A stretch of DNA of 64,000 bases from NCBI GenBank assembly GCA_963765495.1, contig CAVXWP010000009.1:480001-544000 (forward strand), written 5' to 3'. A program made the translations under genes and the position numbers. The notes beneath the pieces were generated by a model. The model saw only the letters and a program-made list of their open reading frames with translations. It was not told where the DNA came from and searched no databases. The stretch comes from Blastocatellia bacterium. GTDB taxonomy: Bacteria > Acidobacteriota > Blastocatellia > UBA7656. Below are positions 14,962 through 19,317 of this stretch, in pieces. Position 1 is the first letter of the stretch. Each line of letters opens with the position of its first letter.

Positions 14962-16188
14962 CTATTTGGCAGCAGCGCCTCTCACTATTTGGCACAATCG
15001 CTCAACACCTTCGATGATTTTTTCGGGCGATTCTTTTGAGAACGCCAGGCGCAGGGTGTTGGCTCCGCTCTCGTCAACGAAGAAGGGCTGGCCCGGCACA
15101 TATGCCACTCCGTGCTCGATAGCAGAAGGCAGCAGCCGGGTCGCATCCAGCCTTCCGGTCAATTTCATCAAGATGAAGAAACCTCCGAGAGGTTGGGTCC
15201 ATTTTGAATCTGTGGGGGCAAAGCGTTCGAGTGCGCCAAGCATAGCTCGGCAACGCGTCTGGTAAAATGCTCGCAACTCGGGCAATCGTCGTTCGACCAA
15301 TCCCGAACGCAGGGCTTCGATGACTATAGCCTGATCAAGCACACTCGAAGAAAGGTCGGCCCCTTCTTTGGCGAGTTCGACCTTGTCGGCAATTGGTTTT
15401 GGTGCTCGCAACCACGCGGTACGAAGGCCGGGAGCCAGCACTTTTGAAAAGCTGCTAAGGTAGACGACGCGCGATGGTCGCAGGGCGGCAAGCGGCTTGA
15501 AACGGTCAGCCTCCGGGGTAAAATAGAGCTCAAAGTAAGGATCATCTTCTATAATGAGAAGGTCATACTCGTCTGCTACTTCGATCAATTGCGCGCGTCG
15601 ATCTGAGGTGAGGGTCACGCCCGAGGGGTTTTGAAAATTCGGGATCGTATAGATGCACTTTATCCTGCGTCCGGCGGCGCGCAAGCGATCAATCTGCTCT
15701 TTGAGATCGCTTATGATTATCCCGCTTTCATCCTGGCGCACGCCTACGAGTTCAGCCTGTGCATTATGAAGAGCTACCGTCCCGCCTATGTAACTGGGAA
15801 GCTCTACAAGCGCCACATCGCCGGGATCAATGAGTACGCGAGAGATCAGGTCCAGCCCCTGCTGCGAGCCCGTAGTCATTACAACCTCTTCCGTGGTTAC
15901 TCCCTCAATCCCCCGCTCAAGCATAGTCTTTACGACCGCTTCGACCAGCTTGCTTTGTCCTCGCGTAGGCCCGTACTGAAGGGCGAACCTTCCGCGCTCG
16001 CTTATGACACGCGATGCAATTTCGGCCAGTTCTTCAACGGGAAAAGTCTCGGCGCTTGGCGCACCGGCCGCGAGCGAAATCACATCGCTACGGCCAAGCA
16101 ATTGAGTCAGCTTTCTGATGGCATTCGGACGCATGGTTCGTCCAGTGGTCGAGAATAGATTTTCGTATCCCGGTTCGGTTTCAATCAT
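14962..16188 (-). CDS. PLP-dependent class I aminotransferase (LysN/MocR-like)
   Basis: ISLAAGAP, TTGSQQGLD, IPNFQNPSG, EDDPY and SFSKVLAPGLR. Confidence 0.92.
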   Translation of the reverse strand: MIETEPGYENLFSTTGRTMRPNAIRKLTQLLGRSDVISLAAGAPSAETFPVEELAEIASRVISERGRFALQYGPTRGQSKLVEAVVKTMLERGIEGVTTEEVVMTTGSQQGLDLISRVLIDPGDVALVELPSYIGGTVALHNAQAELVGVRQDESGIIISDLKEQIDRLRAAGRRIKCIYTIPNFQNPSGVTLTSDRRAQLIEVADEYDLLIIEDDPYFELYFTPEADRFKPLAALRPSRVVYLSSFSKVLAPGLRTAWLRAPKPIADKVELAKEGADLSSSVLDQAIVIEALRSGLVERRLPELRAFYQTRCRAMLGALERFAPTDSKWTQPLGGFFILMKLTGRLDATRLLPSAIEHGVAYVPGQPFFVDESGANTLRLAFSKESPEKIIEGVERLCQIVRGAAAK

Positions 16189-16202
16189 AAGGAGGCCGCC
16201 AT

Positions 16203-16760
16203 TTATTTTTTATCCGAAGCAGTTGTAAATACCAGTTCCACATCAAGTTTAGGTTGAACCGGATCATTCGATTTAATAGTCACTTTCTTGGTGTGTTCTC
16301 CGGGAGCGATGCCCGTGTTGACCTTGACTTTGATTGTGCCCGCCTTACCAGGCGGGAGGACTTTCGGGAAGTCCACGGTGGTGCATCCTCAGCTAGGTTC
16401 GACGGCTTCTATCTTGAGTTTCTTAGTGCCGTTATTTTTCACCACGAACGTACGCGTAAGCTCCTTATTCTGCGGCTGTTTGCCAAATTCGAGCCGTTTG
16501 ACCGGGACTACCAGTTTAGGGCCATCTTTCTCGCCGGCCCCGGTCGATGTCGCAGCCTCCGGCTGAACTTCGGGCGCTGCCGCTTCGGATGAGCCTGTAT
16601 CTGATGTGGCCTGCGGCGTGCCGTTTTCCGTCACTATAGGCTGTGACGGCCCGGCATTGGTATTAGCCGTATCCGAGCCTTCGGGTGGTTTACTGCACGC
16701 AGCAGCCAGGGCTGCCGCCAAGATTAGCATCAGGTAAAAAGGTCTAATTCGTTTTATCAT
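16203..16760 (-). CDS. DUF1573 (Ig-like) lipoprotein with in-frame TGA at a conserved Cys: candidate selenoprotein (185 aa)
   Basis: Lipobox ALAAAC. The frame reads FVVKNNGTKKLKIEAVEPS-TGA-GCTTVDFPKVLPPGKAGTIKVKVNT...KKVTIKSNDPVQPKL to TAA at 16203-16205. The TGA (16389-16391) replaces the first Cys of the DUF1573 SCGCT motif. Confidence 0.75.
16339..16374 (-). promoter_or_regulatory. Candidate bacterial SECIS hairpins
   Basis: Downstream of the UGA: GGACUU-CCCGA-AAGUCC (stem begins after a 14-nt spacer) and CCCGCCU-GGUA-AGGCGGG (G-initiated loop after 39 nt). Confidence 0.45.
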
Positions 16761-16806
16761 CGCAGGAATAATTTAGCATGGAATAGCCGCGCAATAGAAC
16801 GGCGAA

Positions 16807-17184
16807 TCACTCGCTTTCAGAAAGCGTGACGACGGTGGCACCCCAGCCCCCTGCATCCACAGGCGCGTCGCGGAACTCGGCTACATAGGGAGTGCGCGCA
16901 AGAATAGAGCGCACGATTTCACGTTGGACGCCCACGCCCTTGCCATGAATTATTCGCACCCAGCGTATGCGGCGGCGGCGCGCTTCTTCCAGGTAATCTT
17001 CGACAACAGCGCGCACCTGTCGCGGCGGAATCGAGTGCAGATCAATTACGTCACGAAACTCAACGAGCACAGGATCGGGGAAAGGATTGAGCGGATCAAA
17101 CGCCTCGTCATCCTCCAACTCATTTCGCTGCTCGTTTTCGAACCGGTTTCTGCGCAGCGCCCTCAGCAAGCGACCAAAGATCAT
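16807..17184 (-). CDS. Smr domain protein
   Basis: IDLHS, VRIIHGKGVGVQR and GGWGATVV. Start moved to ATG 17184. Confidence 0.9.
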   Translation of the reverse strand: MIFGRLLRALRRNRFENEQRNELEDDEAFDPLNPFPDPVLVEFRDVIDLHSIPPRQVRAVVEDYLEEARRRRIRWVRIIHGKGVGVQREIVRSILARTPYVAEFRDAPVDAGGWGATVVTLSESE

Positions 17185-17284
17185 ATTGAGATCATATTTA
17201 TGTTCCTGAAATGATTCAACCGCGCGGTGGTTCCGGGTCGGGGAAGAGATTAGAGAGAGCAGAGAGTATCTGTTCAGAAAGGGA

Positions 17285-17353
17285 GAAAATTTGCCACAGA
17301 GACACAAAGACACAGAGAAATTTTATAATCTTTTCTCTGTGACTCTGTGGCTA
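17285..17353. repeat. Hairpin element of (GCCACAGA)-type arms, copy 2
   Basis: The reverse complement tagccacagagtcacagagaaaagattataaaatttctctgtg...ctgtggcaaatttt aligns with 2285-2360. Confidence 0.8.
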
Positions 17354-17426: not shown

Positions 17427-17774
17427 TTATCTGGGTTTATTCTCTGCCGCCTGAAGCGTTCTCATATTTGAGTTCTCTTCTTCAGAATTCACCTTTATCA
17501 CGACATCGCCCGGGCGAACCAGCCCGAGGTTTTGTCTTGCGATTGATTCAATAAAGCGCGGGTTGGTCTTCAGTAATTTGACCTCGTTGGCCAACCTCTC
17601 GGTTTCGATCTTCAGGTCTTCGACCCGTTGCGCGGCAGCTTGATTCTTACTTATGGCCGCCTCGATCTCTTCGCCCGTGCGCCAGTAGGCGGATACGCAA
17701 AGAGCAGCGGCGCTCAGAATTATCATAGCAATCAAACCATCTATTAGACGGTGAGAATTGACTTTCTGTTTCAT
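17427..17774 (-). CDS. Septum formation initiator (FtsB/DivIC family)
   Basis: TM helix, coiled coil, and IESIARQNLGLVRPGDVVI. Confidence 0.82.
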   Translation of the reverse strand: MKQKVNSHRLIDGLIAMIILSAAALCVSAYWRTGEEIEAAISKNQAAAQRVEDLKIETERLANEVKLLKTNPRFIESIARQNLGLVRPGDVVIKVNSEEENSNMRTLQAAENKPR

Positions 17775-18363
17775 GATGTGGCTCACCCTTGTGGATGAGT
17801 TTAATTGATTGACCAGTAATGTATTAACCGCTTGACTCACCTGACACCTCCAAACTTGATCGCCAGCAACCACGGCCCTTATCCACACCCGGGTCCGCAG
17901 AGACAAGTGCGCTCATCAGCGAAATTTACCCGCTAATCTGTATGATGTTTTATTTCTTGATTAACTATTTAGCCTTTGAAGGCAAGAGCGATACTAAGTT
18001 TGTTTGAACCTGTTTTTCTCTTCTTAAGTGGACGTCAAGACTCCTGTGGGGGACAGGCTTGCTGACAGGTTGGGACTTTACCACCTTTCGCCTGGCAGTG
18101 CAACACTTTTTTTTTGAATATTTCAAAGCGGCAAGTTGACGTTCTACTTTAACAGTTTATTCACGCTCTCGATCTTCTGAAACTGCGAGGCCAGACGACC
18201 GATTGCAAATGAATGGTTGGGAACCGGCTCCGCTTTGGATCAGATATGATCTTGCGGATACGGTCTCTTATTGCGAGCCGACCTTAAAATCATTATGCTT
18301 TGTGACTGCCGAGCGATACGGCTCAAAATCGGATGGTTTAAAAACATTTGGAGGTACATACTT

Positions 18364-19317
18364 TTGCCTGATTATGTCAGTTCGACTGTCGAGCACATAA
18401 AGGGTGAGATAAGCAAGGCCATAGTCGGCCAGGACCAGGTAATAGAACAGGTTTTGATCGCGCTGTTGACCGAGGGACACGCCCTGATCGAAGGCGTACC
18501 GGGGACGGCCAAGACGCTGCTGGTAAAGGTGCTCGCCAGAGTGATTGGGGCGGATTTCGGGCGCATCCAGTTTACCCCTGATCTTATGCCCGCCGATGTG
18601 ACGGGGACAAATATATTCAACATGTCCACCTCGACCTTTACCTTGAGGCAGGGGCCCCTGTTTACCGACCTCTTGCTTGCCGACGAGATCAACCGCACTC
18701 CGCCAAAGACTCAGGCGGCGCTGCTCGAAGCCATGGAAGAACGGCAGGTCACAATTGACGGCGATCTGCACAAGCTGTCGCCGATGTTCACCGTGCTCGC
18801 CACTCAAAACCCGATTGAATATGAAGGCACTTATCCGCTGCCCGAGGCTCAGTTGGACCGATTCATTTTGAAGATACTGGTCAGCTATCCAAACGCCGAA
18901 GAGGAGTTGCGGGTGGTCTCGAACTGGAATCAGGGGTTTAATGCGCGCCGTCTGGAAGACCTCGACCTGCGCCCCCTGTCCGATCCAGCGGCCATTCTGG
19001 AATGCCGCTCGCTCGTGCGGCGCATTACGGTAGAGGAAGGCATCCAGCGATACATAGTCTCAATCGTTCGGGGCACTCGCGAAGCCATAAATATCTCGTG
19101 GGGCGCAAGCCCGCGCGCAGCCGTAGCCTTGCTGCTCTGTTCCAAGGCGCTTGCGGCCATTCGTGGCCGCGATTTCGTCACACCAGACGATGTGAAAGAG
19201 GTAACCCGTCCCGTGCTGCGCCACCGAATAATCCTGCGCTCAGAGGCTGAGATCGAAGGCACTTCGGCCGATCAGGTTCTCGACGAGGTGACGGCAGGGA
19301 TAGAGGTGCCGAGATGA
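18364..19317 (+). CDS. MoxR-family AAA+ ATPase
   Basis: [44 protein letters not shown] and [17 protein letters not shown] start after a GGAGGT RBS. Confidence 0.95.

Follow-up and report, generated by a model that had tools for sequence, protein, structure and literature searches.

We analysed a 64,000-nt stretch of DNA from a Blastocatellia bacterium (GenBank assembly GCA_963765495.1, contig CAVXWP010000009.1, positions 480,001 to 544,000 of the forward strand; hereafter the window), which belongs to a genome of 7.3 Mb in 17 contigs that is 97.9% complete. On its minus strand the window encodes a putative lipoprotein with a DUF1573 domain (16760-16203, ATG at 16760-16758), and the reading frame of this gene contains a TGA at 16391-16389. 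Translation with table 11 divides the frame into two open reading frames (ORFs) of 123 and 57 aa, the first of which (16389..16760, minus strand) is closed by that TGA. When TGA is translated as selenocysteine (Sec, U), a single frame of 185 aa results, with U at codon 124, 61 residues beyond it and a TAA at 16205-16203. The gene and its parts are:

16203..16760, minus strand: full selenoprotein gene, 185 codons plus TAA, with UGA read as Sec at codon 124
16695..16760, minus strand: predicted signal peptide with lipobox, residues 1-22 (...LAAAC), Cys22 codon at 16697-16695
16521..16694, minus strand: low-complexity linker rich in P, A, S, T, N and Q, residues 23-80, varying in length and sequence among orthologues (predicted local distance difference test score, pLDDT, 51-61)
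16221..16520, minus strand: DUF1573 Ig-like beta-sandwich domain, residues 81-180, as assigned by PF07610, PF22544, AlphaFold and Foldseek
16389..16391, minus strand: UGA Sec codon, residue 124, first position of U-G-C, with the Cys126 codon at 16385-16383

A preliminary description of this locus had reported an ORF that ends at TGA 16389-16391 and a frame that runs on for 61 residues, ending 14 bp before the next ATG. These coordinates and counts are correct, the strand being the minus one, and the next ATG lies at 16188, which leaves a gap of 14 nt. The description had also placed the TGA on the first Cys of the DUF1573 motif. This was borne out by translation with TGA as U, which gives ...EAVEPS-U-GCTTVDFPKVLPPGKAGTIKV...KKVTIKSNDP..., and by a PF07610 (DUF1573) match that includes the TGA and aligns residues 88-170 with profile positions 6-89 of 98 (72.6 bits against a gathering cut-off of 26.1, E = 2.8e-20); the first Cys of the CGC motif is where the TGA falls, yielding U124-G-C126. 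The read-through protein also matches PF22544 (E = 1.7e-12). By eye, its N-terminus reads as a signal peptide followed by a lipobox, MIKRIRPFYLMLILAAALAAAC-S (LAAAC-S). Among the 30 orthologous loci described below, a lipobox of the form [A/G/S]-C-[S/A] follows the signal peptide in all 27 whose N-terminus lies on the contig, and Cys22 is at least 90% conserved in the orthologue alignment, so the lipid anchoring proposed in the same description fits. The putative lipoprotein would be exported, lipidated and processed by signal peptidase II. The existing gene call is a 113-aa truncated form that carries no Pfam domain and is the sole copy in a large protein collection, and the nearest named protein record, from a Blastocatellia metagenome-assembled genome, shows 49% identity.

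The genome that contains the window has the components of Sec decoding: selB (374 bits, cut-off 242), selA (566 bits, cut-off 268), selD (386 bits, cut-off 125) and a tRNA-Sec (71 bits, above its cut-off; called tRNA-SeC(tca) by ARAGORN). The bacterial Sec-decoding trait, which comprises selA, selB, selD and a tRNA-Sec with a UCA anticodon in one genome, is thus complete. A six-frame search for the lipoprotein gene covered 60 relatives, 36 of them same-family genomes; the gene was matched at some level in all 36 and at orthologue level (E <=5e-26) in 31 of them. Counting the window's own genome, there were 33 orthologue-level rows, 31 with one TGA inside the match and two with none. We fetched 30 orthologous loci from assemblies that are independent of one another and represent different genera. 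At the position of U124, 28 of them have TGA and the other two TGC, the motif context was always P-[S/G]-U/C-G-C-T, and 57-62 further codons followed. Both searches, for the Sec machinery and for homologues with TGA or TGC at this codon and conserved coding downstream, had been proposed as checks in the preliminary description, and both came out in its favour.

The sequence beyond the TGA evolves as coding sequence. Mean pairwise differences at codon positions 1, 2 and 3 were 0.224, 0.179 and 0.606 in codons 18-47 past the U, as compared with 0.329, 0.256 and 0.565 in the 30 codons ahead of it. The third-position bias past the U is at least as strong as before it, and therefore coding selection acts downstream of the TGA. 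The two TGC orthologues, L028 (G001) and L037 (G010), sit in genomes that retain selA and selB, which makes the exchange of Sec for Cys specific to the lipoprotein gene. Judged from these sequences, the TGA at codon 124 is a real Sec codon.

The preliminary description had noticed two hairpins within about 50 nt of the TGA. Both are present and covary among the orthologues, and we consider them as a candidate selenocysteine insertion sequence (SECIS):

16358..16374, minus strand: SECIS hairpin 1, GGACUU / CCCGA / AAGUCC, a 6-bp stem with a 5-nt loop that begins 14 nt past the UGA (-5.4 kcal/mol)
16339..16356, minus strand: SECIS hairpin 2, CCCGCC / UGGUAA / GGCGGG, which begins 32 nt past the UGA, with its loop (16350-16345) 38-39 nt past the UGA (-13.7 kcal/mol)

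Hairpin 2 begins 1 nt beyond hairpin 1, can form either as 6 bp with a 6-nt loop or as 7 bp with a 4-nt loop, and brings the combined energy to -20.4 kcal/mol. When the two-hairpin model was placed on the 28 Sec orthologues, 97.0% of the cells were paired, and none of 500 shuffles matched the pairing or the covariation score; in a control on the same 28 sequences, where the 3' partners were slid by 1-3 columns, pairing was 19.6-57.1%. Hairpin 1 has 98.8% of its cells paired in these sequences, with one compensatory change of G-C to A-U. In hairpin 2, pair 44:57 occurs as C-G in 13 sequences, as G-C in nine and as A-U in five; on one side the change replaces the residue (Pro, Arg or Gln), and on the other the wobble base of an Ala codon tracks it. 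RNAalifold independently recovered both helices, and added a U-A pair that closes a GGUA/GGUC tetraloop. Little or no variation is seen at the third codon positions in the stems (GUG, GAC, GUC), fourfold-degenerate ones included, or at the U of the GGU loop, while third positions in loop 1 and ahead of the hairpins vary freely; the loop of hairpin 1 reads CCCGA, UCCAA or UCCUA and has no conserved G. A long irregular stem, the minimum free energy (MFE) structure of the single sequence, was considered as an alternative and rejected, since on the alignment it was 81.8% paired and showed no compensatory change, with 416 of 500 shuffles reaching its pairing. Both Cys orthologues have the two hairpins in broken or weakened form. 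One of these orthologues, L037, can still form 4 bp of hairpin 2, a sign that its switch from Sec to Cys may be recent.

The lipoprotein gene is one of three Sec-containing DUF1573 genes that coexist in this genome. The second is a long-form paralogue (G000:C8:515285-516382, minus strand) of 365 codons with a TGA at 516157-516155 (...VKPG-U-GCT...), about 290 codons past the TGA, and a signal peptide that lacks a lipobox. We fetched 20 long-form relatives, each flagged with one TGA in the six-frame search. All 20 carry the TGA at the first Cys position (18 as U-G-C-T/S, one as U-G-C-A and one as U-A-C), and all 20 have the two hairpins in the same register as the lipoprotein gene, with different stem sequences. 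The U-A-C relative, L110 (G016:C90:49571-50279, minus strand), keeps both hairpins; the middle residue of the motif is accordingly not fixed. In the pooled alignment of the 28 orthologues and 21 long-form paralogues (n = 49), 93.7% of the cells were paired and five pairs showed two-sided changes (59 cells), a result that none of 500 shuffles reached. In these sequences pair 24:40 occurs as G-C (28) or C-G (21) and pair 45:56 mostly as G-C (24) or U-A (21); the loop of hairpin 2 keeps G49 and G50 throughout and U51 in at least 90% of the sequences. The third Sec paralogue (G000:C2:534460-535683, minus strand; L025/L113) has 407 codons and a TGA at 535320-535318, and its motif, which is preceded by an insertion, reads U-C-S. 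Both hairpins recur in this gene, the GGU loop lying 41 nt past the UGA (3 nt more spacing), and each of its 18 matches, which come from the window's own genome and from 17 of 18 same-family genomes searched, has one TGA. A genome-wide script that looked for in-frame TGA codons with a GG-loop hairpin downstream gave 104 candidates, nearly all of them noise; it recovered the lipoprotein gene and the third paralogue, and missed the long-form paralogue, which has a stem mismatch. The same genome also encodes a Cys paralogue of 140 aa with the motif HPSCGCT and a signal peptide (L022 1375-1797; G000:C2, ~185.8 kb).

We compared the two hairpins with the published consensus for bacterial SECIS elements (bSECIS), which describes an apical loop of 3-9 nt, an upper stem of 4-16 bp, a UGA-to-loop distance of 16-37 nt, a G in the first or second loop position, usually followed by G or U, and an MFE of at most -7.5 kcal/mol (PMC13188914). 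The loop and stem sizes of both hairpins fall within these ranges. Hairpin 2 has the loop G (UGGUAA or UGGUCA) and a sufficient energy (-13.7 kcal/mol), whereas its loop lies too far downstream, at 38 nt as a hexaloop or 39 nt as a tetraloop; hairpin 1 has its loop at 20 nt, within the range, whereas it lacks the loop G and is too weak on its own (-5.4 kcal/mol). As hairpin 2 deviates in spacing alone and hairpin 1 in both loop G and energy, hairpin 2 is probably the apical element bound by SelB and hairpin 1 a conserved spacer or lower element. What the locus shares with the consensus used by bSECISearch is a stem-loop within the coding region soon after the UGA; it differs in that the GGU loop lies beyond the 16-37 nt range and that an extra covarying hairpin occupies the gap. 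The SECIS of Escherichia coli fdhF has a GGUC loop about 20 nt past the UGA. We tentatively propose, rating it at a little under an even chance, that this acidobacterial lineage uses a composite SECIS, in which an obligatory spacer hairpin sits at the mouth of the ribosome and the GGU loop is offered to SelB at 38-39 nt (41 nt in the third paralogue), an arrangement kept in three families of Sec-containing DUF1573 paralogues.

DUF1573 selenoproteins as such are already catalogued, and hence the gene does not represent a new kind of system. The family, named OS_HP2, was first defined as a selenoprotein family in 2007 by Zhang and Gladyshev, in the metagenome of the Olavius symbionts (PMC1976440); an ocean survey of 2008 listed it under pfam07610 with a UxC motif, two Sec sequences and 354 Cys homologues (PMC2398784), and lists of 2022 and 2026 give it as PF07610 with the motif UGC (PMC9312934, PMC13188914). 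The use of Sec by Acidobacteria was already recorded in 2006, with three selenoprotein families and four selenoproteins (PMC1794560). The string 'Acidobacteri' does not occur in the main text of the 2022 and 2026 papers, whose supplementary accession lists might include the lineage (PMC9312934, PMC13188914).

Domain, motif and profile score were used for the comparison of the lipoprotein with OS_HP2. Shared are the PF07610 domain, the Sec at the first Cys of the CGC motif (U-G-C) and the existence of Cys homologues. The original family members differ in coming from marine worm symbionts and ocean samples, and the protein studied here, from a Blastocatellia-like lineage, is a lipoprotein in which a long tether carries only one domain. 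The best NCBIfam match of the lipoprotein is NF041425, 'OS_HP2 family (seleno)protein' (E = 3.3e-23). The best match to this model within the genome is the Cys paralogue, at 87.3 bits, which is below the cut-off of 100 bits. In a phylum sample of 121 genomes, 59 matched NF041425 at E <=1e-15, with 95 rows, of which 32, in 22 genomes, contained one TGA; the position of the TGA was checked for five of the 32 (in G000 and G009), and the tallies include an unpublished genome (G083), with a single row that has no stop. None of the 121 genomes had a match over the NF041425 cut-off. By Pfam domain and motif, then, the protein is a DUF1573/UGC selenoprotein, by the NCBI threshold it is not a member of NF041425, and the scores point to a separate subfamily. 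What is new here is an unannotated lipoprotein subfamily, a corrected gene model, three coexisting Sec paralogues and a two-hairpin SECIS just beyond the consensus spacing.

AlphaFold, run with a 30-sequence alignment, predicted a seven-strand sandwich for residues 81-180 (block pLDDT 88-97) and disorder for residues 1-80 (pLDDT 51-61). In the model, the U-G-C occupies the loop that joins strand 115-122 to strand 128-130 on an edge of the sandwich. The best Foldseek matches were HYDIN PapD-like/ASH domains, the Ig-like domains of VesB and VesC and the structure 2qsv (E 1.5e-6 to 1e-4, probability 1.00). These domains, of the HYDIN/ASH/PapD-like (MSP) type, of Vibrio cholerae VesB/VesC and of 2qsv from Porphyromonas gingivalis, for which no function is assigned, share the fold over 100-130 aligned columns, but show only 10-19% identity to the DUF1573 lipoprotein. 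Ig domains of the HYDIN/ASH/PapD-like type serve as scaffolds or binding modules, and we know of none that carries a Sec/Cys pair. The modelled likeness to this fold assigns no catalytic activity to DUF1573. Position 124 is always U or C in the orthologue alignment, which shows no variation at G125, C126, T127 and P137-G138 and hardly any at H156.

Taken as a whole, these data are best explained by a Sec-containing envelope lipoprotein of 185 residues with a two-hairpin SECIS and a U-G-C site, and we hold this explanation with high confidence. SelB and tRNA-Sec would decode the UGA at codon 124 as Sec; an in-frame SECIS of two adjacent hairpins would direct the insertion, the GGU loop of hairpin 2 being the most likely binding site of SelB; and in the product, an envelope lipoprotein, a flexible tether would connect the lipobox Cys22 to a single DUF1573 Ig-like domain bearing the U-G-C. 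The role of this site is less certain. Sec substitutes for Cys almost exclusively at reactive sites, and a C-x-C pair can form a strained, readily reduced ring; on these grounds we favour a redox module over the binding of a soft metal. The U-G-C may be the selenenylsulfide redox centre of an envelope-tethered module that acts on envelope substrates, a proposal we put at an even chance.

The strongest competing view accepts Sec insertion and has the U-G-C bind a soft metal or metalloid, such as Cu(I), Hg(II), Ag(I) or As(III), the protein acting as an envelope chaperone, trap or sensor. Some copper chaperones bind Cu(I) through CXC motifs, and the near-invariant His156 and the invariant or near-invariant Asp130 and Asp166, alongside U124 and C126 in the alignment, would speak for such binding. 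Several metal-related families, namely MerP, MerT, a cation-transporting ATPase and CopZ-like and CobW-like proteins, are, moreover, tabulated beside OS_HP2 (PMC9312934, PMC13188914, PMC2398784). However, no genes for metal resistance or transport adjoin any of the three Sec paralogues, and most selenoproteins are thought to be redox-active (PMC9312934). We consider metal binding unlikely, while giving it more weight than any of the further alternatives.

Several observations weigh against the interpretation as a Sec-containing redox lipoprotein or parts of it. Regarding the recoding signal, the fold of the 91 nt past the UGA, taken as a single sequence, was no better than that of shuffles (z = -0.42; 62 of 200 folded as well), so that the structural support rests on the comparison between genomes and not on folding energy. 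An Rfam scan of 16150-16800 at E <=10 found no SECIS family and returned three chance-level matches (SNORD29, M23 and HOXA11-AS1_3), and no single hairpin agrees with every bSECIS constraint. The lipoprotein stays below the NF041425 cut-off, with 81.9 bits in hmmscan and 76.5 in the six-frame genome search. As Cys orthologues exist, Sec is dispensable at this position. A search of sequencing runs for the stretch listed two DNA metagenome runs (shares 0.09 and 0.06) and no RNA run. As to the redox role, a PDB sequence search with the lipoprotein gave two weak matches (E 0.51 and 0.87), neither of them meaningful, and among the neighbours of the three Sec paralogues, which are unrelated, housekeeping genes, no redox or metal theme was seen. 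Nothing at these loci favours redox over metal binding.

It could also be that the UGA mostly terminates translation. The main product would then be a lipoprotein of 123 residues, and a minor or Se-dependent read-through would form a selenium-responsive switch that affects the aminotransferase encoded downstream via translational coupling. Bacterial Sec insertion is generally inefficient and competes with release factor 2, and the start of the aminotransferase gene, 14 nt past the stop, lies directly downstream in all 30 orthologous loci. However, the truncated product would, according to the model, be missing four of the domain's seven strands and is unlikely to fold; the 57-62 codons past the UGA are under purifying selection as strong as that before it; and the Cys orthologues produce the full-length protein constitutively. 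We therefore regard termination as the main outcome as improbable. An origin of the TGA in a nonsense mutation, in a sequencing error or in the decay of a pseudogene agrees with gene calls that stop at the TGA, with the 113-aa form in the protein collection and with the split under table 11, but is refuted by the coding selection past the TGA and by its conservation in 28 of 30 orthologous assemblies, in 20 of 20 long-form relatives and in 18 of 18 matches of the third paralogue, which leave it a negligible probability. An alternative genetic code in which every TGA is sense, for which nothing speaks beyond the open frame itself, is refuted as well and has virtually no chance of being correct: 18 of the 30 orthologous genes end in an ordinary terminal TGA at the expected length, so that TGA is a stop in these organisms unless a SECIS signal follows, selA, selB and selD are open under table 11, translation with every TGA as sense fuses frames and fills them with many U, and a dedicated tRNA-Sec and selB are present.

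The corrected annotation of the lipoprotein gene restores a complete, conserved envelope protein, and in dozens of related genomes the annotations of the orthologues and of the two other Sec paralogues are very likely truncated as well. One soil-type family of Acidobacteriota maintains at least three DUF1573 selenoproteins. The DUF1573 selenoproteins and the UGC motif were published as early as 2007-2008; our literature search found no functional study of DUF1573, the papers that contain the term being selenoprotein reviews and articles that give it in tables only (one of the latter is PMC10434189). With no function known for DUF1573, the Sec/Cys pair marks the likely active site and offers a handle for experiments. 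The two-hairpin signal, located just outside the published spacing rule, is a useful test case for SECIS-based predictors. A composite SECIS, if true, would explain why gene callers and SECIS-based searches miss such genes, and would make a Sec-bearing Ig-like module a standing part of the acidobacterial cell envelope.

The genes that surround the lipoprotein gene in the window are:

14962..16188, minus strand: class I/II aminotransferase (PF00155, 1.3e-32), 14 nt downstream
16807..17313, minus strand: Smr-domain gene (PF01713, 1.9e-21), upstream
17427-17906, minus strand: DivIC/septum-formation-initiator gene, upstream
18271-19317, plus strand: MoxR-type AAA ATPase (AAA_3, 1.7e-63), upstream

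The aminotransferase gene, which follows the lipoprotein gene on the same strand in every orthologous locus, is probably co-transcribed with it. The Smr gene is found in 22 of the 30 loci, in 20 of them at the same position and in the same orientation, and the synteny with the aminotransferase and Smr genes indicates that the loci are true orthologues. The DivIC and MoxR-type genes show no obvious connection with the lipoprotein gene. The other two Sec paralogues adjoin genes for glycosyltransferases, an ATP-binding cassette (ABC) transporter, a short-chain dehydrogenase/reductase (SDR), a beta-lactamase-type protein, sigma factors and others.

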